Translations under genes and position numbers: made by a program
Sequence record: PZ445527.1
DNA from: a phage
Length of the DNA stretch: 64,000 nucleotides
Direction: 5' to 3' (one strand)
The notes under the pieces: model-generated
What the model was told of the DNA's origin: nothing
Databases searched by the model: none
The model's input: only the letters and a program-made list of their open reading frames with translations
Part shown: piece after piece, positions 22,683 to 64,000 of the stretch
Position numbering within the stretch: the stretch's first letter is position 1
How the letters are laid out: every line of letters starts with the position of its first letter

Positions 22683-23174
22683 TTAGCCTCCAACACCAGG
22701 GTTAACTGTCACAGTACACGCAGTAGAATCCTTACTTACTCGCTTACTATCTGTTACAGTTACTTTATAAGAGCCGGCATCCTCAGCTGCTGCTGCAGGC
22801 TTAGTATAGGTAGCCCCTGAAGCACCAGGAATAGGAGAACCATCTTTAGTCCATGCATAAGTATATGGACCAGTACCACCAGTTGCAGTAACAGAGAGTG
22901 TTAATGCTGCTCCCTCTTCAACTGACATGCTCGCAGTTAAATCTTTAGAAAGAGTTAATGGTGGAGCCGGTGGAGCAGGAGGAACTGCTTTACCATAAGC
23001 CTCTACAAATTTCTTCCATACTTTACGGTTAGTATGCGCAGATGAAAGCCCTAGTTCTCTACGCAGAAAAGCATAGCTAGGAACATATTTATGCGCAGCA
23101 ACCGTAGCAAAGAAGATATGAGATTCTGGCAGTTTTTCACCAAAAATGGTCTTTAGACCATTATAATCAATCAT
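22683..23174 (-). CDS. capsid decoration protein (pb10-like) with C-terminal Ig-like domain
   Basis: 163 aa; Pro-rich linker PPAPPAPP then Ig-like domain. Confidence 0.65.
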   Translation of the reverse strand: MIDYNGLKTIFGEKLPESHIFFATVAAHKYVPSYAFLRRELGLSSAHTNRKVWKKFVEAYGKAVPPAPPAPPLTLSKDLTASMSVEEGAALTLSVTATGGTGPYTYAWTKDGSPIPGASGATYTKPAAAAEDAGSYKVTVTDSKRVSKDSTACTVTVNPGVGG

Positions 23175-24388
23175 TCTTTATCTCCCTCGGTGGAACCTTG
23201 AGGTCTACCACCTTCTTGACCAGATACACCTGTTGCAGAACCAGCAACGTTAGCAGGAATACGAATCCTATCCATCTGCTCATCATCTAAAGGTTCAAGG
23301 TTCAGCTCTAAACGAGCTTCGTTACCAGTCATAATACCATTATTAACCAATGAGGTTAAATGTTTAGCCTCAGCTTCTTTATCTGGTGTTAATGCAGCTA
23401 CCTCCTTAGTATTAGGGGTAATCTTATAACCAAAAAAGAAAGTAAGAGAACTAGTCAGTTTGTTCAGCATAGGAATGATAGTCATATAATAGAACAATTC
23501 GATGTTTGGTCGAATATTCGCATTATTACCACCATCAAGCAGTACTTGCGGAACTCCAAAGGCTAGACAAATAGATTTATTGAATCCTTCGATGTCTTCC
23601 TTAAAGTCTAGATCTTTAAAAGAGGATATTTGGGAGTACGGTTTAGCTTTCATGCCACCATCTAGAATCAGGACAGAAGACTGACCAGTACTAGGATTAT
23701 AATCGAGTTGTAATTCTTCTTGTTTACGCTCACGCAATTTCTTGTTCAGGATTTCATCCGTTTCAAGAATAAGACCAATCACGGTTCCGTTATCTAGGAA
23801 TTTCTCTTTAAAGTTAAGCATCTTAGAACGCTTCTCAAGAGAATCAATAACAGTAGCAACACGAGATTGTCCAGAAATTTGAGAGTTTGTGCCACACACG
23901 TAACTGTTATCCTTTATAAAGATAATCTCATCTACGCGATAGTTTATCTGATTATTAAATATAAATTTTTTGATAAACTTATTGGCATCTGCCTCGACCT
24001 GCATAAGAGCAGCCGGGACATGGTAAAGCGATGTGCCATCCCAATAGATGTATGCACAACCTTCAAAAAGTAGGTCAGTGACTACAAGTCTACGGAATGT
24101 GCTTATATCCATGAATGGATTAGGTCGTACATTTAAGAGAGTGTCTAGAGTCTTTGTCTTGATGCCATTGGCATACGTGACAATATTATATTTATCTCCG
24201 ACAGTATAAGAACACTCCGCCGCACTATCTATAACCATATTAGCAGTTCTATTGAGAATCTCAATTTTACTGTAGGCTTGTCCAGTGGTAAAAGGCTTAC
24301 GGTTAGTGCGATGACTAACTGGTTCCATGTCTCTTATAATACGTTGACCCGGATTTAGCTTTTCAGTAATCCAGCTTTTAAAACCCAT
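23171..24388 (-). CDS. portal protein (pb7-like)
   Basis: 405 aa; between terminase and protease genes. Confidence 0.82.
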   Translation of the reverse strand: MGFKSWITEKLNPGQRIIRDMEPVSHRTNRKPFTTGQAYSKIEILNRTANMVIDSAAECSYTVGDKYNIVTYANGIKTKTLDTLLNVRPNPFMDISTFRRLVVTDLLFEGCAYIYWDGTSLYHVPAALMQVEADANKFIKKFIFNNQINYRVDEIIFIKDNSYVCGTNSQISGQSRVATVIDSLEKRSKMLNFKEKFLDNGTVIGLILETDEILNKKLRERKQEELQLDYNPSTGQSSVLILDGGMKAKPYSQISSFKDLDFKEDIEGFNKSICLAFGVPQVLLDGGNNANIRPNIELFYYMTIIPMLNKLTSSLTFFFGYKITPNTKEVAALTPDKEAEAKHLTSLVNNGIMTGNEARLELNLEPLDDEQMDRIRIPANVAGSATGVSGQEGGRPQGSTEGDKE

Positions 24389-24840
24389 TATAAGAACCTT
24401 GCGAATCCTGATTTTGTTTCAGTCTTGACTTGTGTCTTTTCTTGAGGATTCTGTATTTTGTCTTTCTGCTTTTGAACCCACGCTTTTTGCTTATTAGCAG
24501 AAAATAAGGGAGGTTCTTTCGTGTAAACCTTATGTAATAGTTGGTGATGGTGCTGGCACAATGTTACCACGTCCCTAACTAACTCATGCTCATATTTCTT
24601 GTAGAATGCTTCCCTATTTGAAAGGACGATATTCTCATCAGTGAAATCCAGCTGGAGTTCTTTAGCAAATTTTTTTATTAGCTGAGATATAGTATGATAA
24701 TGATGAAGTTCTAGGTCTTCACTACTACCACATATAGCACAGCAACCATCCTTACTATACCTAGATTTTATACCATCCCTCATTATGGAAATGGCATCAC
24801 GTTTGTACTTAGTATTAGTGGCCATACTCCTCCAATCCAA
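24388..24840 (-). CDS. HNH endonuclease (packaging-associated or homing)
   Basis: zinc-finger CAIC ... HHYH ... CQHHH HNH motifs; start overlaps portal gene. Confidence 0.75.
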   Translation of the reverse strand: MDWRSMATNTKYKRDAISIMRDGIKSRYSKDGCCAICGSSEDLELHHYHTISQLIKKFAKELQLDFTDENIVLSNREAFYKKYEHELVRDVVTLCQHHHQLLHKVYTKEPPLFSANKQKAWVQKQKDKIQNPQEKTQVKTETKSGFARFL

Positions 24841-25342
24841 AGCTACTTAGAAAGATTACTATATCCTCTAGGGCAACATTGAGATTCCATCTAATGTGGT
24901 ATAGCATATATGACCCTTATTGTGTTATAGATGTAGTTTTTATTAGTATAGTTATTTAATGGCACATACCCTATTCTGAGTATTTTGGCTTTAATAGCTA
25001 CATCTAGTGATATAGTGTAAAGGTGCAATGTGGTGTTGCTTCCCAAACGTGTGCTCTCTGGCATCTAAATACTGTTTTTGTACGTTGGTTTACATATTCA
25101 CCTACAATTTGGATTCCACGATCAGCTAATCTAATATTTATATCTTTTATTGTTAGCTTTTGTCGACCTATAGAATCTCCTACACCCCATGTAGAGCATT
25201 AATTTTTCTTGTTTACGTTCTATTATGGGAGAAGTTCTCCCGATCAATGAATATAGTATACATAATCGTATCGAATTTGTAAAGGAGATTTTAAAATACA
25301 GGAATGGGGTACCAACTGAGTAGTATCCCATCCTATACTTAT

Positions 25343-26659
25343 TTATTTACCACGGGAAATAGAGTAAATTCCATAGCGCAGCGCATCACAAAGGTGAGAG
25401 TTAGCATCATGACGTGGTTTTTCACGTGATAATTTCTCTTCACCTTCTTGGAAATCCCACTTATAGTTCTGCAATGCATGGATTAATGAGGAACATGAAG
25501 CATCTACAATAATCTTACCCTGTTGGAACAGTGCTTGCAGGCATGCTAGACCATCTAAGACAGATTTTTTAGCTGGAGCCGATGCAATTTCATGCTCATA
25601 AGCTAAGTCCTGGCGGAACTGAGCTGCTGCAGAGTCAACAAAAATACGATCAACTTTATAACGATCTATACAGTGCTGAATATAAGCAGCATGCTGAGCT
25701 GTAGTTTTCTCCGCCTGCTGGTATTCTTCTAACACATAGTAGGTATCTGTATCGTAATGATATTTAATAGTAAGAACTGCTGTAGGATCACGATAACCAA
25801 CGTCAATACCAAGCAACGTTTCGAATGCTTCATCATCTTTAAAGAAGTGACGCATACCTTTGAGGTCTTTAACATGATCGATAGCATTAAAGGTATCAAA
25901 GATCTGGCCTTCGAATACAGAGAAGTCAGCCTCGTATTCCTGGCGGAAGTAGTTTTTACTAACTGTACGACGTGCTTCCTCAATGTCATTCAGATCAGCA
26001 CGAGGATTATCACGATATGTACCATGAATAGATACCCAGTTAGGTAACGTATCATCGAATCCGTAGGCGTAAAACTCTTTAAACCAGTTACCCCCACGAG
26101 GGGTGGAAATAAATAGAGCCTTAGAATTAGGTTTATCTAGAGTAGGACGCAGCTGAACCCTGAAGGCATCACCACCCACGTCGGAAATTGCCGCCTCGTC
26201 AAAGATGATAAAATCATATGAACGCCCAACTGCGGAGTCAGCCTGAGCCGCGGAAGCTAGTTTAAATAGAGAACCATTAGCTAACTCAATCTCTTTATCT
26301 TTAGCGTTTTCACGTTCGGTTTGTAGGCCATACTTCTTAATAAGACCACGAATCTGAGACCATCCGATATTAGCCAGTGAATAGTTAGGGGCAACTACTA
26401 GTACCTTCACATTAGGTTCCAGCAATTTTAGGAACCCAAGTGTATACGCTATAAAAGACTTGCCTACACGGCGTGATACACACGCCGTTACAAAACGATG
26501 TCTAGGGTCTTCTAGGGCATTGATAATTGCTATTTGAGGGCCATTAGGTGTAATACCCTCTTGTGCTAGTATTCCAGAAACAGGTAGACGGAAGAAACGT
26601 TTGTCTATTCCGAAATCAATAACGTCTACTGTATTAACATAGGGTCTTGATACTTCCAT
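25343..26659 (-). CDS. terminase large subunit
   Basis: 438 aa; Walker A-like VSRRVGKSF; C-terminal nuclease-like region. Confidence 0.88.
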   Translation of the reverse strand: MEVSRPYVNTVDVIDFGIDKRFFRLPVSGILAQEGITPNGPQIAIINALEDPRHRFVTACVSRRVGKSFIAYTLGFLKLLEPNVKVLVVAPNYSLANIGWSQIRGLIKKYGLQTERENAKDKEIELANGSLFKLASAAQADSAVGRSYDFIIFDEAAISDVGGDAFRVQLRPTLDKPNSKALFISTPRGGNWFKEFYAYGFDDTLPNWVSIHGTYRDNPRADLNDIEEARRTVSKNYFRQEYEADFSVFEGQIFDTFNAIDHVKDLKGMRHFFKDDEAFETLLGIDVGYRDPTAVLTIKYHYDTDTYYVLEEYQQAEKTTAQHAAYIQHCIDRYKVDRIFVDSAAAQFRQDLAYEHEIASAPAKKSVLDGLACLQALFQQGKIIVDASCSSLIHALQNYKWDFQEGEEKLSREKPRHDANSHLCDALRYGIYSISRGK

Positions 26660-27141
26660 TACTTTTTACCTCCAGTAGCTAGGGAAGTAATTAGGTCCAT
26701 GTAGTTTTGATCCCCGGCTCCAGCAATAATGTTATTCTGGATATTGGTCTGATTAGCAGGAGCTCGAACGGCAGCTTTAGCTTTTTCTAACTCTACCATC
26801 ATCTTCATTTCTTCCATCTTCATCTTATGTGCTTTCCAGAGAATATCCATAATATCCTGGTCAGAACCCATGCCAGTTTCTTCTAACTCTTCTAGCTTGC
26901 GCTTAATAACTTCGTCTAGAACACCAAATAAACGATCTCTATTACGGAATCCGCTTTCCATAAAAATATCGTTTAAGTAGTTCTTAACTTCACTACGATT
27001 CATAATATCTCGGAAAGCTATTTCTGACATTCCAAGACTACGTGCGGCAAAAGGCACATCACTGCCGCACTGTAAATAAGCTTCAATCACATCCATCCCT
27101 TCAGGGGACATAAGATCTGGTACTAATACATCATTTGCCAT
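26659..27141 (-). CDS. putative terminase small subunit / DNA-binding protein
   Basis: 160 aa with N-terminal HTH-like segment; directly upstream of and overlapping terminase large gene. Confidence 0.45.
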
Positions 27142-34342: not shown

Positions 34343-34569
34343 AGTATAAACTCCAGTTTATTTCGTGGATTGTTCCGCATTACCTGCTAAAAAGTAACAG
34401 GTAATAAGAAAAAATCCGCTCGCCAATATAATCAATTTAAAGAACTCCACTCAGGCCGCTATATCCCGTTAGGGGGCGGGGCACATTTTGGCAAGTACCG
34501 GCCGTCAAATTGTATCAAGTTATCGCTCTTATCGAACTGGGTACATCTTAAAGCCTATCGGCTAGGGTG

Positions 34570-34773
34570 TCAAACTATTTTTTGCAGTTTTTTATGATTT
34601 TCCTTCAGGTCGATCATAATATTTCGCCAGATCATTTCTAGACCTTGCTGGCGGCCTTTCTTGTACTGCTTAAATCGATATTTTACCGATCTTTGCGCTA
34701 TTGTCAATAGCTTTCTAGTATTGCCATCCAGTTTTTTGGCTGGTTTACCAGTGACTAATAAAGTTTGTTTCAT
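34570..34773 (-). CDS. hypothetical basic protein
   Basis: 67 aa Lys/Arg-rich ORF. Confidence 0.3.
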   Translation of the reverse strand: MKQTLLVTGKPAKKLDGNTRKLLTIAQRSVKYRFKQYKKGRQQGLEMIWRNIMIDLKENHKKLQKIV

Positions 34774-35446
34774 ATCTGCGATCCCTTATAATGTAATAAG
34801 TTTGCCGCCGATAGACTTTAAGATATACCCAATTTTTAAAGAGCGCGGCGGTAAACTTCCCGCCGTGTAGTTCGTCATTGCCGCCCTACGAGATAAATAA
34901 TAACAAATGCCAAAAATGGCGCAACCTTATTTTTGTAAAGAAACGTAAAGAAAGCAAATACTCGCACCGCGTCCGGCGATTGCCCAAGTTTAAAGGAAAC
35001 GGGCGCGCGGATACCATAAAATCCAGCAGATAGGCAAGTAATTTTTTCATTTATATTTGCCTTGCCCTACTTGATTTTTCTAGAATCCATCAGGTGACGA
35101 TAAACGGGCTATCCCTTTATGATGGGATACCTGAAAAATTTACCTCGTTGTAGGACGTTTTAGGCCGCTTATTTTCGAGTTAACAAATATTTAACAAAAG
35201 CAAAATTGAAAAATAGTTGTAAAAGGTATTGACTTTTAAAAATCAAGATTAAACGAGTTATTTTATAAAATTAATTAATTGACTTTTATTTGTTGTTGTG
35301 TACTAGAAAGATAGCAGACTAATAATTACTAGAATGATAATCATGCTGGTGGATTGTAACAGCCTGAACCATTAGCAGACTACTAATTCCGGAAAATCTC
35401 ATTAGCCAACTAACTATTTCCTGAGTTATAATATAAACATAAATTA

Positions 35447-35600
35447 ATGAGAAATAATAACTATAAAAATAATCACCATTATAATAATAACTATAAAAAT
35501 AATAACTATAAAAATAATCGCCATTATAATAATAATTATAAAAATAATCGCCATTATAATAATAACTATAAAAATAATCACCATTATAATAATAACTATA
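35447..35600. repeat. tandem direct repeats, about 26-27 bp unit, about 5.5 copies
   Basis: unit ATAATAA(C/T)TATAAAAATAATC(A/G)CCATT repeated head to tail. Confidence 0.85.
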
Positions 35601-35639
35601 AGAAACTATCGGTCTAAGTGAGAATCACTATCATTTAAG

Positions 35640-35721
35640 TTATTCACAAAGTTATCCACAGCACAAAATGATTTGACACGATAGGCGGCGATATAAGGGC
35701 TTATCCACAGACTTATCCACA
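35640..35721 (+). promoter_or_regulatory. cluster of DnaA boxes
   Basis: TTATTCACA (35640), TTATCCACA at 35652, 35701 and 35713 (three perfect consensus boxes), all same orientation. Confidence 0.75.
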
Positions 35722-36041
35722 GGTTTTCCTACTGTATAAATATACAGGGTAAAAAGGTAGTGTTAACGACTGCAATCAATTTTAAGCGGCCTAAATCGCT
35801 TTCTAACGAGCTAAATGATGCGGGGTAATATTAAAGTAAAGCCTCCACCCGTTGCCCTGGGTGAAGGGTATTGATATTTCTACTTTTACCGTTAACAACG
35901 AAAACGAGTAATAATTAACCTAATGTAAAGTTTTGTAAAGGTCGCCATAATCGGTGGCTTTTTTGTTATAATGCCCCTACACCGTTTGAGGACGGTTGAA
36001 AATTTTCCCAAAAAAATTTTGGAGGCTTAAAATGGTTGCGT

Positions 36042-37434: not shown

Positions 37435-37469
37435 TAATAACGGGGCGCAACTATCAGGGAGTGCCCCCA

Positions 37470-37507
37470 ATTCTCAAATGAGAATCATTCTCAAATGAGA
37501 ATGATTC
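37470..37507. repeat. overlapping near-perfect palindromes TCAAATGAGAAT(C/G)ATTCTCATTTGA
   Basis: dyad symmetry read directly; flanked by GGGGCGC...GTGCCCC inverted repeat. Confidence 0.8.
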
Positions 37508-37747
37508 TCATTTGACCGCGCCCGCGATGGTTAGCCTGCTAATGATTAGGGTGTTACGTGTCGCCTTGTGTGATCGTTAGCTCGCTAACTAATTTTCAAG
37601 CCTCCTCCAATTTTGCCCTTGTTTTAGTATCCCCGCCAAAATTAAACGCGTTAGAATGCGATTCAGGACGTTTTAGCGGTATATTAGAATTATTCACTGC
37701 ATAGGAATACTGTATAAATATACAGTAGAATAACCTGGGGATAAGTC

Positions 37748-37816
37748 TGTGGATAACGCTTCAAAATGGCTAGGATTCTGTCAAGTCAAATCGTGCTGTT
37801 GATAAGTCTGTGGATA
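37748..37816 (-). promoter_or_regulatory. DnaA boxes in inverted orientation
   Basis: TGTGGATAA at 37748-37756 and 37808-37816 (reverse complement of TTATCCACA), preceded by palindrome TACTGTATAAATATACAGTA (37708-37727). Confidence 0.75.
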
Positions 37817-37839
37817 ACTTAAATAACAGTGTTTCTCAC

Positions 37840-38047
37840 TTCCGTTTTTAAATGCGAATCATTATCATTCGTATTCCACTATCTAACCGATAATCATTCC
37901 ACTTTTTAAATGAGAATCGTTTCACTTCTTGAATAGTTCTCATTCCCTTTCTTAAATGCGAATAATTATCATTCGCATTTCACTTTTTAAATGAGATTGA
38001 TTCTCATTATCATTCGCATTCAGGCGAGCAGGGCAATTGCCCTGCGC
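37840..38047. repeat. array of AATG(C/A)GAAT...ATTCGCATT palindromic motifs ending in perfect 18-bp palindrome GCAGGGCAATTGCCCTGC
   Basis: repeated TTTTTAAATG(A/C)GAAT units and dyad-symmetric AATGCGAATAATTATCATTCGCATT. Confidence 0.75.
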
Positions 38048-38050
38048 TTT

Positions 38051-38276
38051 TGTGCAAATCCGACATCTGCTCCAAGGGTTACGTGCTGGCGTGTATGTGC
38101 AAATCCGACAATTTTTGGTAGTGTGCAAATCCGACCCGAAAAATTTTTATAGTGTGCAAATCCGACGACGAATCTGTCTCCCAAAAACTCCAGCAATCAC
38201 GAACTGCGTTCGAATCCTGTGGGATATGTGCAAATCCGACATGGTTTTTCTAGGATTAAGATGTGCGAATCCGACA
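38051..38276 (+). repeat. six direct 14-mer iterons GTGCAAATCCGACA (one variant GTGCGAATCCGACA)
   Basis: copies at 38051, 38097, 38123, 38154, 38228, 38263; irregular 25-75 bp spacing; same orientation. Confidence 0.85.
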
Positions 38277-38605
38277 AGATTTTTGTGACTTCGATTGAAG
38301 GGTGTGTGATTGTGTGGGTTTGAGGAGAAGATGAGAGAGCGAGAGAAATTTTGGGACTAGAAGGATGTGGGCGCAGGATTGGTGCGGAGCACCTGATTTG
38401 CGGGGATTTTGGGGAAGATGTGGGATAATTTGGGAAGATTTGAGATAGGTGCAGAAAAAGTGAAATTTTATTAGCAAAATGGGGCAAAATAGCTTGACAA
38501 GTGAAAATTTCTGTGGCTCTAAAAACTCAGGCAATCATGGGCCTTCGGCCCGAAATAATGCTGCTATTTTCAGGAGAGTAGGAGTTCCTAAAAACTTAGG
38601 CGTTT

Positions 38606-38654
38606 GTGCAAATCCTACCATAAATTTCTAGAATATCAATGTGCAAATCCGACA
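38606..38654 (+). repeat. two further copies of the 14-mer iteron
   Basis: GTGCAAATCCTAC (38606) and GTGCAAATCCGACA (38641). Confidence 0.8.
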
Positions 38655-38694
38655 GTAATTTCTGGAAATGTGTTTTCGAAAAATGTCTCCTAGA

Positions 38695-38770
38695 AATAAC
38701 CGCCCTCCCTATAACCGCCCTATATTAACCGCCTATTGCTAGAGTTTCTAGGAACAATGAAAACCGCCTG
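38695..38770 (+). repeat. four direct AACCGCC heptamer repeats
   Basis: ATAACCGCCCTCC, ATAACCGCCCTAT, TTAACCGCCTATT, AAAACCGCCTGAG. Confidence 0.6.
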
Positions 38771-39189
38771 AGTTGACTAAAGTTTTCATAAAAACTTAGG
38801 AGTCTAGAAGAAAGTGTTGTGCCATCCTAGCAGATGAGCGGCAACAGGTGTATCATCTTGAATGTAAATTATATGGTCAAAAGTTTTACTTTTATTTTAA
38901 ATATAAGATCCCCCAGGGTTCTCATATAGAGCTTTGCCCCCGCCAGAAGGTCTCGTGATGTTTCTAGCAATTTATATTAAATTACTTATTAACTTGTCCT
39001 GTCGCTCCGTATCCTCCGCTACAAGTTAGTAATTTTAAATTACTGAACCACCACACCTTCTGTGTGGCAACTCTAAATGGTTAATTCTATTAACTCATAG
39101 AGTTATGATAACATACATTTAGCTATCTGTCAACGAAAGTTTGTATTTGAGTCTCGGTACAGGTATTGTGCACCGAGACATGCAGAGTA

Positions 39190-57482: not shown

Positions 57483-57557
57483 TGGCAGGGGATATTGGAT
57501 TTGAACCAATGATCTCGACTTCAAAGGCCGTTGTGCTAACCGTTACACTACTCTCCA
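57483..57557 (-). tRNA. tRNA-Gln(UUG)-like
   Basis: perfect T-arm ATTGG-TTCAAAT-CCAAT, D-arm GTGT-AACGGTTA-GCAC, anticodon loop CTTTGAA, CCA encoded; acceptor stem pairs poorly (4 of 7). Confidence 0.4.
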
Positions 57558-57648
57558 ATTGTTTGGCTGGAGTGCCTGATTCAATCCCAGGCACCTTCGG
57601 AGTCAGAGGCCGACGACTTGACAATTGATCTACACCTCAAGAATACTA

Positions 57649-57885
57649 TTAACTAGATGCTGGTTCTGCTGGCTGAGATACAGCAGGCTGTTCTAATGTA
57701 TCTGGTGCTGATACAGAGAAAAGAGCTTGTAATGCTGCAATATCACGCTCGTAAGTTTCAATACGAGTAGTAAGAGTATCTACCATCTGTTTATGATAGG
57801 CTAAGTTATTCTGAGATTCATCTCGAAGGGTTTGCAGTTCTGCAAGACGTGTTAACATAATTTCACTAATTAAAGCATTACTCAT
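57649..57885 (-). CDS. hypothetical protein
   Basis: 78 aa coiled-coil ORF. Confidence 0.45.
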   Translation of the reverse strand: MSNALISEIMLTRLAELQTLRDESQNNLAYHKQMVDTLTTRIETYERDIAALQALFSVSAPDTLEQPAVSQPAEPASS

Positions 57886-58075
57886 TTGTTTCTCCTAAAT
57901 TTTCCGGTTCTTCTAAACGTTTGCCTTCATGATCTACTCGAATAACTCCGCATCCTTCGCAAATCACAACTGCACCATAACCTTCTTTGACTTCAGCTTC
58001 TGTAATCAAACCAGAAAGATCACCAGTATCTCTGCCCCACATATCAATGGAGCATTGTTTGCAGAAATCAGCCAT
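57878..58075 (-). CDS. zinc-ribbon protein
   Basis: CKQC ... CEGC. Confidence 0.45.
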   Translation of the reverse strand: MADFCKQCSIDMWGRDTGDLSGLITEAEVKEGYGAVVICEGCGVIRVDHEGKRLEEPENLGETNE

Positions 58076-58100
58076 ATTTTATTTCCTATTTAAGTTAATT

Positions 58101-58177
58101 TGGGGTGGCTAGTGGAACTCGAATCCACATAGGCCTGATTCACAATCAGGATCATTAACCAATTATGATATAGCCAC
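58101..58177 (-). tRNA. tRNA-His(GUG)
   Basis: hand-folded cloverleaf: acceptor GTGGCTA/TAGCCAC, D-arm TCAT/ATGA, anticodon arm CCTGA-TTGTGAA-TCAGG, T-arm GTGGA-TTCGAGT-TCCAC, discriminator C, CCA encoded. Confidence 0.85.
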
Positions 58178-58406
58178 AATTGAAAACTCGCAGGGTTAGC
58201 GAAACCATCCTCAATTAGCATGTTCTAGAATACTAATCAAGTTATCTCCTATTGCACGCAGCTCAAGACGAGTACGAATTTTCAATTGTGGCGGCTCTCA
58301 GAAACTCTTCTATTCTAGCCTCAGAAGCTTACCCCCGAACGCATGTCGGGAAAGTCTTTCCAAGCGCATCAAATAGCACCGTTACACTTTGAGCCATTGA
58401 TGTATC

Positions 58407-58476
58407 AAGGAATAGAAGGACTTGAACCTTCATGAGTTAGACCATTTAACTCAACCGCTTTTTAGGGTATATTTCT
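58407..58476 (-). ncRNA. aberrant tRNA-like element
   Basis: canonical T-arm GAAGG-TTCAAGT-CCTTC and acceptor-like ends, but only one internal hairpin (TGAGTTA-AATGGTC-TAACTCA); no separate anticodon arm found. Confidence 0.3.
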
Positions 58477-58543
58477 AGGAGTGGATGTTCCTAGTAAACC
58501 TATTCGGCAGTCCCGTCTACCAATTCCGGCATATTCCAAGATT

Positions 58544-58638
58544 TGGAGGTAGGTAAGGGGATCGAACCATTACACCGTATCACTACGGTCAACCGATTTC
58601 AAGTCGGAGTCCATCGCCAGCCGTTGGATTGACCTACC
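58544..58638 (-). tRNA. tRNA-Ser(UGA)
   Basis: acceptor GGTAGGT/ACCTACC, anticodon loop CTTGAAA, long variable arm ACCGTA-gtga-TACGGT, T-loop TTCGATC, CCA encoded. Confidence 0.82.
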
Positions 58639-58650
58639 TTATAAATTGTT

Positions 58651-58735
58651 TGGTGGGTTAGGAGAGACTCGAACTCTCACGCACTTAAGCAAGGGCTTCT
58701 AAGACCCTCGTGGCTACCAATTACACCACTAACCC
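58651..58735 (-). tRNA. tRNA-Leu(UAG)
   Basis: acceptor GGGTTAG/CTAACCC, anticodon arm AGGGT-CTTAGAA-GCCCT, long variable arm, perfect T-arm GAGAG-TTCGAGT-CTCTC, CCA encoded. Confidence 0.8.
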
Positions 58736-58741
58736 CTAATT

Positions 58742-58816
58742 TGGTGGACAGTAGGAGAGTCGAACTCCTCACTCCTGAGTGCAAGTCAGGTATTTTCCCA
58801 GATAAACTAACCGCCC
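58742..58816 (-). tRNA. tRNA-Ala(UGC)
   Basis: acceptor GGGCGGT/ACTGTCC (two G-U pairs), anticodon arm CCTGA-CTTGCAC-TCAGG, T-arm AGGAG-TTCGACT-CTCCT, CCA encoded. Confidence 0.82.
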
Positions 58817-59185
58817 AAATTCTTTAATTTACTAAGGCTATTAGCTCGGCGTAACTACAGCACCTTCGCTTCAAGCGGAAGGAACCGCGTCATCTCGCAA
58901 ACCCAATACACTATTCAGTTGCCGCTGAATCTAGTGGACTAATCTAGAACTTCTCCCGAGTCGTAGGGATCGTGCTTTTTGGCAGCCAGTCCTAGGTCGA
59001 GCTAATACCTTAGTGAATTATGATGAGGATTTCTCCCATATCAATTTATATAAATATTATAACAAGAAATTAATCATCAAGCAATTGAGTTTTTCTTGAA
59101 ATTGGTAGCGGGTTCCAGTACTGCCCTGGACTTACTTAGCTTATGAGACTAAGAAGAACTCTATGCCTTCCACCCGCAATTGTTT

Positions 59186-59309
59186 GGTTATTCTAGACAG
59201 GATTCGAACCTGTTATCACTTGTGCGGACTTACGAGAACCATTCTTTCACTCGAATCGAACGAGCTTCTGCCCTAGCCAAGCTGGTTTCCCCATCAACCA
59301 CGCTAGAAT
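59186..59309 (-). ncRNA. about 121-nt tRNA-like element containing two T-arm-like hairpins
   Basis: perfect 7-bp acceptor-like pairing ATTCTAG/CTAGAAT enclosing D-arm-like TGGT-TGATGGGGAA-ACCA and T-arms GCTCG-TTCGATT-CGAGT and ACAGG-TTCGAAT-CCTGT. Confidence 0.3.
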
Positions 59310-59431
59310 GTTTGATTGTTTTCAGTGCAAGAGTCCGAGTCTTGGACACGACCGTTTCGCAAGTACATAGGCAGCTTATCATGAGTCAGCACTTCCGAAT
59401 TGCTAGCCCCGTGTTCTGCACTGAAATTTTA

Positions 59432-59779
59432 TTAGTTTAACCGTAAAGTATTATCTAATTCACCATTAATTGTTCGGCATTCCTCTGGAATTGCTGGTGT
59501 GGCCTTGTATTCCCACCACTCAGCACCATCATATTCCCCACGTTCTAGCCAAGTTCCGTCGGCAAACCATACATTACCATAAAGTAATTGTCCACCGTAT
59601 CCAGAATCATACTCAAAGTCTAGGTTATCAAGAAAATCCTCAATATCTTCTTCTGTATAGCCTAAAGGTAATACCCAAACTTTTTTATCCCCATAATACC
59701 CGAATTCTATTTTAATACACTTAATTTTAGAATTGGTATTTTTTAAGGCAAGTAACAACTCTTCTTTAGCATTACGCAT
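59432..59779 (-). CDS. hypothetical protein
   Basis: 115 aa ORF. Confidence 0.5.
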   Translation of the reverse strand: MRNAKEELLLALKNTNSKIKCIKIEFGYYGDKKVWVLPLGYTEEDIEDFLDNLDFEYDSGYGGQLLYGNVWFADGTWLERGEYDGAEWWEYKATPAIPEECRTINGELDNTLRLN

Positions 59780-59802
59780 AGTATATTCTCATACTGAATT
59801 AA

Positions 59803-59879
59803 TTTGGCGCGACTGATGGGATTTGAACCCACATTCCCTCCCGTGATAGGGGAGTACCATTACCAAGCCAGCCACGGTC
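59803..59879 (-). tRNA. tRNA with atypical anticodon loop CTATCAC (anticodon uncertain)
   Basis: CCA encoded, T-arm GTGGG-TTCAAAT-CCCAT, acceptor 6 of 7 paired, perfect anticodon stem CTCCC/GGGAG. Confidence 0.45.
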
Positions 59880-59890
59880 GCATAATTTAT

Positions 59891-60076
59891 TTACTCAGCT
59901 TTGAGTTTTTCAATAGCTGCATTAAGTTCTTTAAGAAACTCTTTTCGTACATTAAGACGATTGAGACTTACTAGTATATCATGTTTAAGTTCTTCGATGT
60001 ATTTCTTCTCAACTTCAATATTGTTGATAGTGCTATCACGATGAACTTCTAGCTGCGCAATCACATTCTTGGACAT
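59891..60076 (-). CDS. hypothetical coiled-coil protein
   Basis: 61 aa ORF. Confidence 0.4.
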   Translation of the reverse strand: MSKNVIAQLEVHRDSTINNIEVEKKYIEELKHDILVSLNRLNVRKEFLKELNAAIEKLKAE

Positions 60077-60178
60077 GCTTGTTTCCTCAGTTATTAATGA
60101 AAATGGTATCTGTGGCTGAATTAGATGTCAGCAATGATAGCTGGTTGGCTACCGGTTTACTTAACTCTACACAGAATT

Positions 60179-60261
60179 TGGCGGGCCGTGTAGGATTCGA
60201 ACCTACGTTGTCTTTCGACACGGATTAACAATCCGCCGCCAAACCGCTTGGCTAACGACCC
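60179..60261 (-). tRNA. tRNA-Asn(GUU) with unusually long variable region
   Basis: acceptor GGGTCGT/ACGGCCC, D-arm GCCA-AGCGGTT-TGGC, anticodon arm GCGGA-TTGTTAA-TCCGT, 13-nt variable region GTCGAAAGACAAC, perfect T-arm, discriminator G, CCA encoded. Confidence 0.65.
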
Positions 60262-60416
60262 TAAAAAATTTATATTGCTGACTAGGGTTTTCACCTAGAC
60301 GGAGTTAGCACCGTAGCGTGTAGCGGCATACCTCTCCAAACCGTGCCTCATCTTTCAATTACGGAGACAGTGTTCCTACGCGTGCCTGAATTGATTTAAC
60401 AATTCTTTCAGCAAAT

Positions 60417-60492
60417 TGGACGACCGCATGAGGATTGAACTCACATAAAAAGGATTTGCAATCCTTCGCCTAAGCCATTCAGCCAACGGTCG
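60417..60492 (-). tRNA. tRNA-Cys(GCA)
   Basis: acceptor CGACCGT/GCGGTCG, anticodon arm AAGGA-TTGCAAA-TCCTT, T-loop TTCAATC, CCA encoded. Confidence 0.82.
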
Positions 60493-60670
60493 ATTTATCT
60501 TGTTTTTCGAGATCTTCAAACTCTAAATCATTGAAGTTCCCTAGAGTACGGGTATAGAACCCATCCCCTGCGTCATAGCCTGATTTACCACAATCACACA
60601 TTTTAAATTCGCGCAGGTGTGTGAAAACATGTTCAGAACCACAACACTTAAATCTAACTAATCGTTTCAT
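60479..60670 (-). CDS. zinc-finger protein
   Basis: 63 aa; CCGSEH...CDCG motifs; 3' end overlaps tRNA-Cys by about 14 nt. Confidence 0.4.
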   Translation of the reverse strand: MKRLVRFKCCGSEHVFTHLREFKMCDCGKSGYDAGDGFYTRTLGNFNDLEFEDLEKQDKSTVG

Positions 60671-61009
60671 TAGCTTCTCCAGTTCAATTTATGTAATTAT
60701 TATATAGAACTTTTGGGAACTAAGCAACTACATTTTTTAAGAATTTGATGCCTTTCTTTTTCTTCTTATATTTCCACGTTAATGGATTCTGTCGATTATG
60801 AACGCTTGAGATCTTTGTCTCGTCAAAGTTCTTCAATATCATGTAATCACAAGATAATTGTTCTAGTGGAATGTGATCACCGTCAAAAGCGTATACATAA
60901 GGCTGTTGACTAGCACGATAATGATAGACTTTGTTAATTCTACGTTTCAGCGACTTATCCGCGCAGTAAATAAAGAAGTTTTAAGGGTGCATCAGCATCT
61001 CCTTCAATT

Positions 61010-61093
61010 TGGTGCATCGTGCTGGATTTGAACCACCAACCCCGAAGGGCACGGATTTACAGACCGCTGCAATAGCCATTCTGCCAACGATGC
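61010..61093 (-). tRNA. tRNA-Tyr(GUA)
   Basis: acceptor GCATCGT/ACGATGC, D-arm GCAG/TTGC, anticodon loop CTGTAAA, long variable arm GCCC-ttc-GGGG, discriminator A, CCA encoded. Confidence 0.82.
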
Positions 61094-61143
61094 ACATTTA
61101 AAAGTATTCAAATACTAGTTTAAACACTTTTAAATATGTTTCC

Positions 61144-61160
61144 AAATTAGATAACTATTA
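61144..61160 (-). promoter_or_regulatory. extended -10 promoter element upstream of tRNA-Tyr
   Basis: - strand TGGTATAAT (reverse complement of 61147-61155). Confidence 0.4.
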
Positions 61161-61221
61161 TACCAAGTTTTAAGGCACTGAGCAAGTCAGATTTTGAAGA
61201 ACTTGCTCAGTGCTGTATTAG

Positions 61222-61506
61222 TTAGTCGAACTTAGGAGTGACAGATAAGGAGAACGGAAGTTCAAAAACTTCTTCACCCTCATTACTAACGGTAACTACA
61301 CGACCTTTAAGTTCAGACATTAAAATATCAATATCAGCTTTTGCATCTGGAGCCATGCCAGCTTCAATACATTTAGCTTTAACTTCCGGTAAAAGCTCTA
61401 CGTTATAGAGATAGAGCCACTCAATCTCACCTTCCCAGTCTTCCCAGTCTTCCCAGGATTTGCAGATTGCACTTTCAATACCAGTTGCTACAACACGATT
61501 TTGCAT
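61222..61506 (-). CDS. hypothetical acidic protein
   Basis: 94 aa ORF; repeat WEDWEDWEGEIEW. Confidence 0.5.
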   Translation of the reverse strand: MQNRVVATGIESAICKSWEDWEDWEGEIEWLYLYNVELLPEVKAKCIEAGMAPDAKADIDILMSELKGRVVTVSNEGEEVFELPFSLSVTPKFD

Positions 61507-61539
61507 TCGTTAACTCCTTCATCAATTTATATAACTATT

Positions 61540-61580
61540 ATACCAGAAATTTAAAGCAAAAGGCAAGTACATTTTTAAAA
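61540..61580 (-). promoter_or_regulatory. early sigma70-like promoter
   Basis: - strand TGGTATAAT (reverse complement of 61543-61551) then ATATAAATTGATGAAGGAG RBS region. Confidence 0.45.
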
Positions 61581-61596
61581 ATTCTGTTTGGAGGAG

Positions 61597-61803
61597 CTAA
61601 ACTCCAGATTCTTCTGCCAAGTCTAGACTAATAAGAGTTATAGCCATAATTGCTGCACCGTGTTCTTTTTCTCCGGTGTTTTTAGCAGAGTCTATAATAT
61701 CCTTAATCTGTTCGTAATAACTTTTTACTTCTTGTTCAATGCCTGCCTCGGCTATCATGCCTTTAGTCATGAGTCGTTGCATGGTAATTTCAGTATTAGC
61801 CAT
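61597..61803 (-). CDS. hypothetical protein
   Basis: 68 aa ORF. Confidence 0.45.
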   Translation of the reverse strand: MANTEITMQRLMTKGMIAEAGIEQEVKSYYEQIKDIIDSAKNTGEKEHGAAIMAITLISLDLAEESGV

Positions 61804-61978
61804 GTTGTTTCTCCAGTTTCATTTTTAATAGTTTACAAATGAAATCAACGTCTTCATCCGTGCCTAGATCTCTATCTTCAAGGGTTGCCTTGAAATTTTT
61901 TGTTAGTTCCATAAGAATAACTTCCCTGGAACGACGTGTTGGCGGGGGTGGATGTCTATACATCTTATTTCCTTAATT

Positions 61979-62053
61979 TGGTGGGTCGGAGGAGAATCTA
62001 ACTCCTACTCGTTAGCTTATGAGGCCACCGCTTTAACTTTAAGCTACCGACCC
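61979..62053 (-). tRNA. tRNA-Met or Ile2 (anticodon CAU)
   Basis: acceptor GGGTCGG/CCGACCC perfect, D-arm GCTT/AAGC, anticodon loop CTCATAA, T-arm AGGAG-TTAGATT-CTCCT (atypical T-loop), CCA encoded. Confidence 0.65.
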
Positions 62054-62059
62054 TATGTT

Positions 62060-62148
62060 TGGCGGAAGAAGTGGGAATCGAACCCACAAGGCTATATTTC
62101 AAACCGACAGATTAGCAATCTGCTGCAATACCGTTATGCTATTCTTCC
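62060..62148 (-). tRNA. tRNA-Ser(GCU)
   Basis: acceptor GGAAGAA/TTCTTCC perfect, anticodon arm GCAGA-TTGCTAA-TCTGT, long variable arm, T-arm GTGGG-TTCGATT-CCCAC, CCA encoded. Confidence 0.8.
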
Positions 62149-62168
62149 GAATTTATAAATATATTATA

Positions 62169-62687
62169 TTAGAAATTTAGCTTCATAGCAAGAAAATTTT
62201 TCAAGTTTTCGGTAGACATCTCATCCACATCTACAGGAGAAACAAATCCATTTAATTGTCTAGCAAATTTTTTACCAGCAGGATCATTATCCCCAACAGC
62301 TACCAATTTAAAAGGTAGTAATTTCAATTGCTTTAATAGCGCTTTTCCTGGAGAAGAACCCAACATTGCCAAGGCTGGATAACCAGCGTTATGTAACGCA
62401 ACTGCCTTAAATACAGATTCAGCAATCAATACCACTTTTTCATCTCCATTGAGAGTTTCTAGTCCCCATACACACTGTGTAGTAGAATAAGTAAAATATC
62501 TAGCTTCAAAGGGGCACTTACCATGACCTTTTGGAGCAGAAGGATTATAAGTCTGATAGCCTCTCAACATCCCAGAGAAGTCATACAATGGGACTGTTAG
62601 CCATCCTTCCGGGCTTAACCAGCAATGATATTTATCTGTATCAAACCCTCTAGATAAGAGATGTTCTGTTAGTTCATCAACAGTCAT
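62169..62687 (-). CDS. Toprim-like domain protein
   Basis: 172 aa; LIAESVFKA (conserved Glu) and GDNDPAGKKFA (DxD) resemble a Toprim fold. Confidence 0.4.
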   Translation of the reverse strand: MTVDELTEHLLSRGFDTDKYHCWLSPEGWLTVPLYDFSGMLRGYQTYNPSAPKGHGKCPFEARYFTYSTTQCVWGLETLNGDEKVVLIAESVFKAVALHNAGYPALAMLGSSPGKALLKQLKLLPFKLVAVGDNDPAGKKFARQLNGFVSPVDVDEMSTENLKNFLAMKLNF

Positions 62688-62783
62688 ATTTGATCCCCTA
62701 GTTAGTTGTATAAATACATTATACAGAAAAGCCCTGCGCTCTCCAGTGAACGCAGGGCTTACTTCGAATATTACGTGTGGGTA

Positions 62784-63731
62784 TTACTTGTTACGCATAT
62801 CCATAATCATTTGGCCATCGTAACCAGTGCCAACCACAGTCTGCGGTACACCACCTTGATACTTCTGAGCACGAATCATTTCAACTTCTAGTTGCTTCCA
62901 GCGAATCATCTCAGGAGTAATGGTACGTTGCAGAGCGGCGTTAGCTTCAGCTTCTTTCTTAGCTGCGTACAGTTTAGCATCTGCATCACGTTCGTTTGCA
63001 ATAGCTTGGTTGTTACGAGCTTCACGATCTGCTTCTGCTTGTTTAACCTTCTGCTGTGCTTCTTGTTCAACACGAGCCAACTCAGCTTTCGCAGCATTAA
63101 CTTGTTCTTCACGAACTTTGGTATTCTGTACCTGTTCCATGATTACAGGCGGCAAAGTAATATCCTGAAGGAACACTTGCTTAACTGTGTAACCATAAGG
63201 GCGTGCATACTCTTCAACTTCCTGTTGAATTGCAGTTTGCAATTGAGCCTGAATTTTAGCATCAAACAAATCTTGTGCTTTAGGTACAGACTTACCAAAC
63301 TCACGAATAGTAGACAGTAATTTTTCAGTTACATACTTGTCTAGTGCCTGATCCTGAGTACCTGCATTAATACGGTTAATCGGTGCCTTAGAACCATCAA
63401 ACTGCAACATAACAGTCAGGTCAACAGTGGATTTAAACTTATCCTGACTAGGAACCTGAAGTTTATCTAATTTTACAGCAATATCTTTTGTACTGAAAGT
63501 ATCGAAAGATGCAAACGGGTTTACAATATGGAAACCAGGTAATACTGGATTAGGGTCTACTTTACCAAGAAATGTTTGGGTTTTAACCGTACCATCAGAA
63601 ACAATAGTATATGAATTAAAAGCTAGGATTAAACCTGCTAAACCAACTACAGCACCAATACCCCAACGTTTAATAGTACGGATTACTTTCTGCTCAGAAG
63701 TCAGTTCTTTCATATTTTTAGTAGCAAACAT
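62784..63731 (-). CDS. SPFH/Band-7 (prohibitin/HflK-like) membrane protein
   Basis: N-terminal TM helix, SPFH-like core, long C-terminal Ala/Glu/Gln-rich coiled-coil. Confidence 0.65.
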   Translation of the reverse strand: MFATKNMKELTSEQKVIRTIKRWGIGAVVGLAGLILAFNSYTIVSDGTVKTQTFLGKVDPNPVLPGFHIVNPFASFDTFSTKDIAVKLDKLQVPSQDKFKSTVDLTVMLQFDGSKAPINRINAGTQDQALDKYVTEKLLSTIREFGKSVPKAQDLFDAKIQAQLQTAIQQEVEEYARPYGYTVKQVFLQDITLPPVIMEQVQNTKVREEQVNAAKAELARVEQEAQQKVKQAEADREARNNQAIANERDADAKLYAAKKEAEANAALQRTITPEMIRWKQLEVEMIRAQKYQGGVPQTVVGTGYDGQMIMDMRNK

Positions 63732-63764
63732 ATATTTCCTTTGTTTTAGTTACAGTTAATAAAA

Positions 63765-63839
63765 TTGGCCGAGGTGACAGGATTCGAACCTGCATAAAGG
63801 AATTTAGAAGACTCCTGCCTCTCCCTTAGACTACACCCC
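63765..63839 (-). tRNA. tRNA-Arg(UCU)
   Basis: acceptor CGGGGTG/CACCTCG, D-arm GTCT/AGGC, anticodon arm GGAGT-CTTCTAA-ATTCC, T-loop TTCGAAT, CCA encoded. Confidence 0.82.
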
Positions 63840-64000
63840 GTTTAAGTATTTTTAAGAACTCTCGTAAAAACTCTTAAAAATACAGACGATACCGGGAGAG
63901 TCATAAGTCTCACTCATTAAGTATTTCAAGACAAAATACAGTAACGTCTATTATTTTCCAGTTTAAGTCAGGGTGACTTAGTGGTTATGTCCTGCGGTAT

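Follow-up and report, generated by a model that had tools for sequence, protein, structure and literature searches.

What occupies the ∼500 bp between the terminase gene and a small HNH gene of this phage, and what is the role of the HNH protein? The window, a stretch of 64,000 nucleotides (sequence record PZ445527.1), stems from a T5-like phage (∼97% to DT57C and Gostya9), and the locus in question is the terL/nicking-endonuclease/portal junction of a Tequintavirus-type T5-like phage. All genes at the locus are carried on the minus strand, and the name terL is also given in the annotations of T5, DT57C, and other records.

23171-24388, minus strand: portal protein gene (Pfam Phage_portal, E 2.2e-50)
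24388-24825, minus strand: HNH-type protein of 145 amino acids, assigned as nicking endonuclease SciA by identity to T5 T5.153
25343-26659, minus strand: terL, terminase large subunit, 438 amino acids (Pfam Terminase_6N and Terminase_6C)
25343-25345, minus strand: terL stop codon TAA

The original prediction, made from the sequence alone, described an HNH gene that overlaps the portal start and a spacer of ∼500 bp devoid of convincing open reading frames. Both descriptions were confirmed. Base 24388 belongs to both the HNH stop and the portal ATG (TAATG, an overlap of 1 nt), and the gap between terL and the HNH open reading frame comprises 502 bp (24841-25342) without an intact gene; its longest open reading frames encode 66, 59, 57, and 30 amino acids. 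This length is counted from a TTG start of the HNH open reading frame (24388-24840). The true start is probably the ATG at 24825, and the alternative TTG at 24840 is unlikely: a ribosome-binding site (RBS; GGAGGAG, 24827-24833) precedes the ATG, the TTG lacks one, and the ATG is the annotated start in T5, DT57C, and others. With the start at the ATG, the gap is really 517 bp long. It is the largest ORF-free stretch within the structural-gene block and the eighth largest in the whole window (70-amino acid threshold). A Pfam search of the 66-, 59-, and 57-residue frames gave no match. The 66-residue frame was considered as a gene and rejected, because it begins upstream of the promoter described below and is just 29 residues long in insert-free phages.

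The HNH protein is identical to T5.153 of T5 in 145 of 145 residues. It also matches the PDB entries 9QGV and 9QGX (chains 9qgv_A and 9qgx_A, “Nicking endonuclease”) with an E-value of 7e-96, the sole difference being His-42 of the HH motif, which is an engineered mutation in these entries. DT57C, Gostya9, and the BASEL phages annotate the gene as sciA or nicking endonuclease, and the Swiss-Prot label Q6QGD4 ENDON_BPT5 was found in the annotation of a relative. Judged by sequence identity, the HNH gene is the already characterized T5 gene for SciA, the site-specific nicking endonuclease; it belongs to the core late genes, and the single-strand interruptions typical of T5 virion DNA would, according to the literature, be the product of this enzyme. 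The functional assignment draws on sequence identity, on the names given in databases, and on older genetic work cited second-hand; a paper on the 9QGV/9QGX structures or a biochemical assignment of sciA to the open reading frame was not found in the literature searched. The core motifs of an HNH nuclease can be read in the protein (C29-x2-C32, H41-H42, and C90-x-H92-H93-H94), and PHROG 8048 “HNH endonuclease” matches it with an E-value of 2.5e-7; this match and the identity to 9QGV/9QGX confirm it as a member of the HNH (ββα-metal) nuclease superfamily. None of the Pfam HNH families gave a significant match, the best being HNH_2 with an E-value of 1, under the cutoff. Sites for the nick consensus RGCGCRGG were counted in the window.

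The nickase gene is under purifying selection (dN/dS ∼0.1) and occupies the same locus in 534 of 534 related records, including those from Sugarlandvirus, Priunavirus, and Novosibvirus, with no empty site. Because it is present in all of these records, it is a core gene and not a homing element. The order terL-nickase-portal is conserved in Markadamsvirinae, Sugarlandvirus, and Priunavirus; in the Novosibvirus PM135, a tail protein gene lies upstream of the nickase gene instead. The intergenic regions upstream of the nickase gene measure 120-137 bp in these other genera.

HNH proteins of the HK97 gp74 type reportedly assist terminase in cos phages. They are small and encoded beside the terminase and portal genes, as in the window, and the original prediction had considered the HNH protein as an essential co-factor of terminase. 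That the protein primarily serves packaging cuts in this manner, instead of or besides nicking, is consistent with the conserved position of its gene between terL and portal and with the label of the small terminase in the T5 record AY692264 ([quoted passage not shown]), which ties nicking to packaging proteins. However, only the genomic position recalls gp74: the sequence shows no match at the family level, none of the classic HNH Pfam families is matched significantly, and the ends of the non-cos phage T5 are long direct terminal repeats (PMC10644984). Depositors and Swiss-Prot name the protein a nicking endonuclease. Moreover, an essential role in packaging is argued against by the viability of interruption-deficient T5 mutants that lack nicks, as quoted in a passage of PMC3517423. 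Together with its identity to the T5 nickase, this speaks against the proposed essential function, and we regard a primary role as terminase co-factor as unlikely.

The spacer itself is composed of two parts. The part adjoining terL is shared by all close relatives and contains the following features.

25247-25342, minus strand: core terL-nickase intergenic region, 96 bp, common to all close T5-like phages
25294-25340, minus strand: terminator-like hairpin just past the terL stop, followed by UGUAUUUU
25255-25283, minus strand: candidate sigma-70-type promoter, TTTACA (25283-25278), 17 nt, TATACT (25260-25255), from a consensus scan and conservation

All 442 records of close relatives match at least 25247-25342, with 85-98% identity, and most of them match nothing past this core. 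In phages without the insert described below, the whole intergenic region is 114 bp long, consisting of the 96 bp and a further 18 bp. The 96 bp adjoining terL are the ancestral intergenic region.

The hairpin behind terL folds with −20.6 kcal/mol (z −4.05) in the window and with −25.3 kcal/mol (z −5.67) in T5, and Uniso31, PSTCR5, and PM135 possess unrelated hairpins in the same position. The element escaped our scan, which counts stems much shorter than this one. It is probably a leaky terminator that closes the terS-terL unit. The promoter hexamers are identical in 9 of 9 aligned phages and coincide with a putative promoter annotated in the T5 record AY692264. On T5 late promoters, the literature searched gave nothing specific. 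The architecture TTTACA-N17-TATA(A/C)T is kept in three other Demerecviridae genera (with TATAAT), the spacer sequences differing. The promoter scan did no better than chance (5 sites versus 4.9 expected from shuffled sequences), so that the promoter call rests on conservation and not on the scan. Transcription is predicted to start at ∼25248 and would drive the nickase, portal, and downstream head genes; in most relatives the promoter abuts the nickase RBS. In the insert-free phages this RBS is GAGGAG, directly after the promoter, unlike that of the window. The late-promoter signal that had been suspected in the spacer thus has a plausible counterpart in the terL-proximal 96 bp.

Beyond this core, alignment with T5 and IrisVonRoten identified the remnant of a homing endonuclease gene (HEG).

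24815-25246, minus strand: pseudogene of a free-standing HEG of the T5.154/T5p150 type (tblastn and pairwise alignment with T5 and IrisVonRoten)
25172-25246, minus strand: former 5′ UTR of the HEG (alignment)
25227-25241, minus strand: small hairpin GGGAGAACTTCTCCC in the former 5′ UTR (weak fold)
25176-25181, minus strand: RBS AGGAGA of the dead gene
25019-25171, minus strand: 5′ end of the dead gene (codons 1-51), which includes the first half of zinc finger 1; 96% identity with the intact counterpart
24886-25018, minus strand: degenerate middle of the dead gene, 68-75% identity, with in-frame stops and indels
24815-24885, minus strand: last 23 codons of the dead gene and its stop (24815-24817)
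24827-24833, minus strand: nickase RBS GGAGGAG, contributed by the 3′ terminus of the dead gene

The remnant begins exactly at the point where the HEG-free genomes diverge. The insertion point lies directly after TATACTATATTCAT, from where the HEG-free genomes run straight on into the nickase RBS; the empty site was defined in chee24 and GreteKellenberger, and the outgroup genera are empty as well. The intact protein comprises 224 amino acids with two CapR/DUF4379 zinc fingers and a T5orf172/MUG113 domain at residues 126-211 (Pfam). It matches PHROG 681 “endonuclease” and is labeled “putative homing endonuclease” in IrisVonRoten (bas32_0003) and “GIY-YIG nuclease family protein” in JLBYU43. 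The 277-residue T5.154 of T5 is an over-extension that results from a 1-nt difference, and the real protein has 224 residues. A tblastn search with the 277-residue T5.154 recovered codons 1-49 and 49-101 at 96% (this segment corresponds to HEG codons 1-48 in the numbering of the 224-residue protein) and the last 21 codons at 90%, with a degenerate, stop-containing middle.

Several lesions separate the copy in the window from the intact gene. The start codon at 25169-25171 has changed from ATG to ATA; it is ACG in DT57C and still ATG in smaug. Three indels mark the degenerate middle: 34 bp are missing at 25018/25019, 3 bp have been inserted, and 7 bp are deleted. Furthermore, 280 bp (codons 109-202) are missing at the junction 24885/24886, and with them residues 126-202 of the nuclease domain (residues 126-211). 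Because of the ATA start, the in-frame stops, and the 280-bp deletion, the window copy is a pseudogene and not a functional HEG. The window contains no further member of the T5.154 family. The hairpin in the former 5′ UTR is not significant in a fold test (z −1.7). The degenerate middle is only 66-77% identical to every intact allele, the nearest being those of the S113 type (76-77%), versus 90-96% at the ends of the remnant. Simple decay of a T5-type copy fails to explain the middle, because it is far more diverged than the ends; an unsampled allele or recombination may be its source.

We are highly confident that the HNH gene encodes the T5 nickase and that the spacer consists of a conserved terminator/promoter region and a decayed T5.154-type HEG. 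The comparison with T5, which the original prediction had proposed as a check, was decisive here, as T5 possesses an intact T5.154 and the window a decayed remnant. The suspicion of a homing element at the locus was correct for the T5.154-type neighbor and incorrect for the HNH gene, which is present in all 534 records; likewise, the spacer holds the wreck of a conserved protein gene, but no intact one.

The insert is distributed unevenly among the relatives. It is absent in ∼350 of the 442 records and intact in ∼74; 88 records hold the gene or a remnant, and 12-14 share the deletion junction of the window. Presence of the insert is accompanied by a distinct form of the adjacent nickase gene.

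24526-24825, minus strand: insert-linked allele class of the nickase gene, codons 1-100, putative co-conversion tract (step in dS)

Compared with the HEG-free allele, dS is 1.74 in nickase codons 1-100 versus 0.17 in codons 101-145. Identity in this tract is bimodal, with 83 records at 90% or above and 449 at 60-80%, and the linked allele is found in 83 records versus 88 with the insert. A deeply diverged 5′ allele of the nickase gene occurs in tight linkage with the insert, a pattern that reads as the signature of co-conversion. The linkage is not absolute, because the nickase gene of PNJ1902, a phage with an intact insert, represents a third allele. The phages S113 and smaug carry the T5-type insert and a T5-type nickase segment (nucleotides 1-300/400) in an Epseptimavirus backbone. 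In terL, S113 shares 94-100% identity with GreteKellenberger, and from nickase nucleotide 301 into portal 96-100%, whereas its insert and nickase nucleotides 1-300 are 88-100% T5-like. Between the window and smaug, 37% of the terL third codon positions differ but only 3.4% of the remnant sites, which points to transfer of the wreck.

The original prediction had also considered an RNA or packaging signal in the spacer. Were the spacer a functional regulatory leader, a non-coding RNA, or a packaging signal kept for its own sake, the HEG likeness would be incidental or an exaptation. In favor of this, the remnant with the same junction occurs in ∼12 records across two genera, an essential operon has it in its 5′ leader, and its divergence of 2.7-4.2% is no higher than that of linked third codon positions (4.8-9.7%). 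This low divergence can be attributed to recent horizontal transfer together with the nickase allele, however, and ∼350 close relatives as well as three other genera lack the remnant and have the promoter abutting the RBS. A search of Rfam over 24700-25450 (E up to 1) gave no match, and a structured RNA is unsupported because the 441-nt leader as a whole folds like shuffled sequence (z −1.1). The packaging ends of T5 are its terminal repeats and not this locus (PMC10644984), and no evidence for a packaging signal in the spacer was found. A function of this kind is very improbable.

The same holds, even more strongly, for a short zinc-finger peptide (∼43-56 residues, the N terminus of the old enzyme) that would still be made and bind DNA, for example for target-site protection. 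In its favor, conservation of codons 1-51 reaches 96%, the RBS AGGAGA has survived, and smaug retains the ATG, with a 43-residue open reading frame annotated there. Against this, the ATA of the window and the ACG of DT57C represent two independent losses of the start codon, no other in-frame start codon is available, and the 34-bp deletion has cost zinc finger 1 its second pair of ligands (GCPHC), which makes such a peptide extremely doubtful. Finally, HNH is a common fold of homing endonucleases, T5 is reported to have 9 HNH homing endonucleases, and the 5′ 300 nt of the HNH gene are mosaic between phages, but the probability that this gene itself invaded the terL-portal junction as a homing endonuclease is close to nil, as the site is occupied in every one of the related records, the gene evolves under purifying selection, the overlap of its stop with the portal start suggests translational coupling, and the mosaicism tracks the presence or absence of the neighboring T5orf172-type gene.

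Returning to a decayed HEG beside a core nickase gene, the homologies, deletions, distribution among relatives, allele linkage, and promoter footprint, all of which were directly observed, are compatible with the following history. The HEG probably integrated precisely where the promoter met the nickase RBS. It then probably spread across T5-like phages and genera by homing or recombination, co-converting the first ∼300 nucleotides of the nickase gene. In the lineage of DT57C, Gostya9, and the window, the nuclease domain was probably lost via the 34-, 7-, and 280-bp deletions, and the start codon would have been lost later and independently in different phages. The ∼430 bp of the spacer beyond the core are a dead T5.154-type HEG, once encoding two treble-clef zinc fingers and a T5orf172/GIY-YIG-clan nuclease. 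The wreck presumably now forms a ∼420-nt untranslated leader, whose 3′ end still provides the nickase RBS.

An intact T5.154-type enzyme would be predicted to cut the nickase allele of HEG-free phages, and the allele of the window to resist cleavage; a cleavage or homing assay for an enzyme of this type was not found in the literature searched. Tentatively, the HEG and nickase codons 1-100 might form one cassette, in which the live enzyme cuts the insert-free allele and the dead cassette acts as immunity, a possibility that we consider worth stating but less than probable. Homing would then swap the catalytic and recognition half of the nickase for a deeply divergent, cleavage-resistant version. 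A dead cassette could persist, and could even have crossed genera in the case of smaug, because it would still confer immunity to relatives with a live enzyme. Should nick sites be chosen differently by the three nickase allele classes (T5/window, chee24/GreteKellenberger, and PNJ1902/phC11), a selfish element would reshuffle the T5 nick pattern among phages.

The value of these findings lies mainly in annotation and in phage population genetics. The ∼500-bp unannotated gap in DT57C, Gostya9, smaug, SA001, and this phage can be annotated as a HEG pseudogene with a conserved terminator/promoter region, and the 277-residue model of T5.154 in T5 should be shortened to 224 residues. One locus in a well-sampled phage family displays the full life cycle of a HEG (empty, intact, and decayed). 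The sharp co-conversion tract inside the nickase gene yields a testable prediction of the cut position of T5.154, and the locus hints at nickase alleles being swapped between genera. The arrangement of spacer and nickase gene is ordinary phage biology and not a new kind of system.

The closest known counterparts are found in T5 itself. The T5 nickase (T5.153, T5p149, or ORF142) has the same 145-residue sequence, the same position between terL and portal, and the same overlap with the portal start as the protein of the window. The difference to T5 lies in the upstream neighbor, which is an intact T5.154 gene in T5 and its wreck in the window, the nickase protein being no different. T5.154/T5p150 is located at the same insertion site as the remnant, and its 5′ UTR, RBS, codons 1-51, and last 23 codons are homologous (90-96%). 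Whereas T5.154/T5p150 is intact, the copy in the window has no start, a broken frame, and nearly all of the nuclease domain deleted.

The free-standing HEGs of T-even phages (Seg, Mob, and I-TevI-like GIY-YIG enzymes) are known for marker exclusion, co-conversion of flanking sequence, and a cycle of invasion, decay, and loss. Like these, the T5.154-type gene occurs sporadically at one intergenic site among near-identical genomes, is accompanied by a sharply bounded co-converted tract in an adjacent conserved gene, and is also represented by degenerate copies. Unlike these, the T5.154 type is a T5orf172 enzyme with treble-clef fingers and resides in Demerecviridae.

Every gene of the region is encoded on the minus strand, in this arrangement:

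23171–24388, minus strand, portal
24388–24840, minus strand, 150-aa ORF (HNH gene)
24841–25342, ORF-poor gap of 502 bp
25343–26659, minus strand, terminase large subunit (terL)
26659–27141, minus strand, terminase small subunit (terS)

The portal ATG and the stop of the HNH ORF share one base (TAATG), and the longest ORFs of the gap (66, 59, 57, and 30 aa) have no Pfam match, which confirms the layout of the original prediction, namely an HNH gene overlapping the portal start and an ORF-poor spacer of ∼500 bp up to terL. The HNH gene probably starts at ATG 24825 behind GGAGGAG rather than at TTG 24840, in agreement with annotations. Nowhere else in the structural-gene block is there an ORF-free stretch as large as this gap. 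Outside this block, ORF-poor stretches are found at 34343–35995 (1653 bp) and within 37435–39189 (602 and 655 bp); those at 57.9–62.2 kb are explained by a minus-strand cluster of 12 tRNA genes (57483–63840), one of which (59805–59881) is called as tRNA-Asp and has an unusual anticodon, ATC.

The region is 97–98% identical to the T5-like phages DT57C, Gostya9, SA001, and T5, and the 145-aa HNH protein is identical to T5.153/T5p149 of T5. Two PDB depositions titled "Nicking endonuclease" (9QGV and 9QGX) have the same sequence except for residue 42 of the HH motif (H42Q or H42A). Records of DT57C, Gostya9, and BASEL phages name the protein sciA or nicking endonuclease, and one relative's annotation cites Swiss-Prot Q6QGD4 (ENDON_BPT5). 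The HNH fold is marginal in Pfam (E = 1) and positive in PHROGs (E = 2.5e-7). As reviewed in PMC3517423, sciA and sciB were genetically mapped to the T5 late region; terS is labeled probable sciB in the T5 record AY692264. Our literature search found no primary paper tying sciA to this ORF or describing the 9QGV/9QGX structures. PMC3517423 also gives RGCGCRGG as the T5 major-nick consensus, matched in the window at 9392, 36401, and 38370 (plus strand) and at 62740, 51146, 38048, and 44 (minus strand).

This nickase gene is present in 534 phage records, including the Demerecviridae genera Sugarlandvirus, Priunavirus, and Novosibvirus, where a short 120–137-bp intergenic region precedes it. It is a core gene and not mobile, and its proposed role as a homing element is not supported. 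Nor does the evidence favor an essential gp74-like terminase co-factor, given the Pfam score and the viability of T5 mutants without nicks, as stated in PMC3517423.

We dissected the spacer by aligning nine relatives and by BLAST of the spacer only. Only the 96 bp adjoining terL (25247–25342) are common to all 442 close relatives. In phages without the insert, such as chee24 and GreteKellenberger, the intergenic region measures 114 bp in all and consists of this core, directly followed by the nickase RBS and start. A hairpin with a 20-bp stem (25294–25340) and then a U-rich run directly follow the terL stop. Its folding energy is −20.6 kcal/mol (z −4.05) in the window, whereas it is −25.3 kcal/mol (z −5.67) in T5; the weakening is caused by a single substitution, T to C, in its 3′ arm (GGTACCCC versus GGTATCCC in eight of eight aligned relatives). 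The core also contains TTTACA-17-TATACT, where AY692264 annotates a putative promoter. Taken alone, the promoter scan finds no more than chance would give. Yet a hairpin and then TTTACA-N17-TATAAT also precede the nickase genes of three other genera, whose intergenic sequences are otherwise unrelated. We read this shared layout as a phylogenetic footprint, left by a genuine terminator and promoter, and infer their activity. Among the signals proposed for the spacer, the promoter thus has support, whereas a packaging site and an RNA are not supported: there was no supporting evidence for the former, no Rfam match in the spacer, and no significant structure in the leader RNA. The ends of T5-like genomes are long terminal repeats (PMC10644984).

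In T5, the remaining interval is occupied by T5.154/T5p150. Judged by alignment, 24815–25246 is a dead homing endonuclease gene of this type. A homing element therefore does exist at the locus, and the suggested comparison with T5 reveals it, but the HNH gene is not that element. The real coding region of T5.154 comprises 224 aa, the length given in the IrisVonRoten and S113 annotations. The 277-aa model of T5 (positions 2116–2949 of the T5 locus, NC_005859), annotated with "contains single transmembrane domain," extends too far at the N-terminus, across hairpin and promoter (window 25172–25331), which the absence of a single base makes possible (GGG, against GGGG/GAGG in relatives). In its intact form, the protein combines two treble-clef zinc fingers (CapR/DUF4379) with a nuclease domain (T5orf172/MUG113, aa 126–211), and it matches PHROG 681 "endonuclease." Segment by segment, the window compares with the intact gene as follows:

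old-gene 5′ UTR and RBS, intact
25169–25171, old start codon, ATG to ATA
codons 1–51, 96% identity
25018/25019, 34-bp deletion, second ligand pair of finger 1 lost
middle, 133 bp, degenerate (68–75% identity), with stops, a 3-bp insertion, and a 7-bp deletion
codons 109–202, 280-bp deletion, nearly all of the nuclease domain lost
last 23 codons, 93% DNA identity, overlapping the nickase start and providing its RBS

The same deletion junctions occur in 12–14 records (DT57C, DT571/2, Gostya9, SA001, smaug, and three short contigs). The old start codon is ACG in DT57C and still ATG in smaug, so it was lost independently in different phages and later than the shared deletions. In the records inspected, no pseudogene or decayed gene is annotated here (feature listings are empty or give only "hypothetical protein"), and the window holds no paralogue of the insert elsewhere.

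Insert or remnant is found in 88 of the 442 close records (∼52 intact of T5 type, ∼22 intact of S113 type, and the 12–14 remnants); the others are empty or carry other remnants such as phC11. Outgroup genera have an empty site, which is therefore the ancestral state. phC11 (OQ680480, 1078–1340) represents a different decay state, in which the 96-bp core and 47 bp of the insert 5′ UTR are kept and ∼120 bp of unrelated sequence, carrying an RBS of its own, separate them from the nickase. chee24 (MF431730) has a 488-bp unannotated stretch (257–744) between the nickase and a shortened portal annotation (729 nt), which may reflect a further insertion or a portal that is split or mis-annotated. Contigs labeled "Listeria phage LM ..." (OR848653, OR847562, and OR846838) and "Campylobacter phage C13/A148" (MG065692 and MG065642) match the sequence of T5-like coliphages or Salmonella phages almost exactly and probably reflect contamination or mislabeling.

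Nickase codons 1–100 (24526–24825) fall into at least three deeply divergent allele classes (T5/window/S113, chee24/GreteKellenberger, and PNJ1902/phC11), and the divergence stops abruptly at the conserved HHHQLLHKVYTKEPP segment; in PNJ1902, the third class occurs together with an intact insert. Between window and chee24, dS is 1.74 (dN/dS 0.10) for codons 1–100 and 0.17 for codons 101–145. S113 has an Epseptimavirus backbone, being 94–100% identical to GreteKellenberger in terL and 96–100% from nickase nt 301 into portal, and carries a T5-like insert and a nickase nt 1–300 that is 88–100% identical to T5. The phage smaug shows the same pattern, but with a dead copy; its differences from the window amount to 37% of terL third positions, 3.4% of the remnant, and 5.5% of nickase third positions. 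Across the collection, identity in nickase nt 1–300 is bimodal (83 records at ≥90% and 449 at 60–80%), and the 83 nearly match the 88 insert-bearing records. Such a pattern is classically left by a free-standing homing endonuclease whose spread co-converts the neighboring gene. We infer that its target is in the 5′ part of the nickase gene and that the allele linked to the insert resists cleavage.

The finding holds but is ordinary, as the locus combines a known enzyme gene, a conserved putative terminator/promoter, and an unannotated pseudogene of a known selfish element. Of modest interest is a by-product, namely the co-conversion tract, which crosses genera, has sharp bounds, and covers the catalytic half of the T5 nickase.
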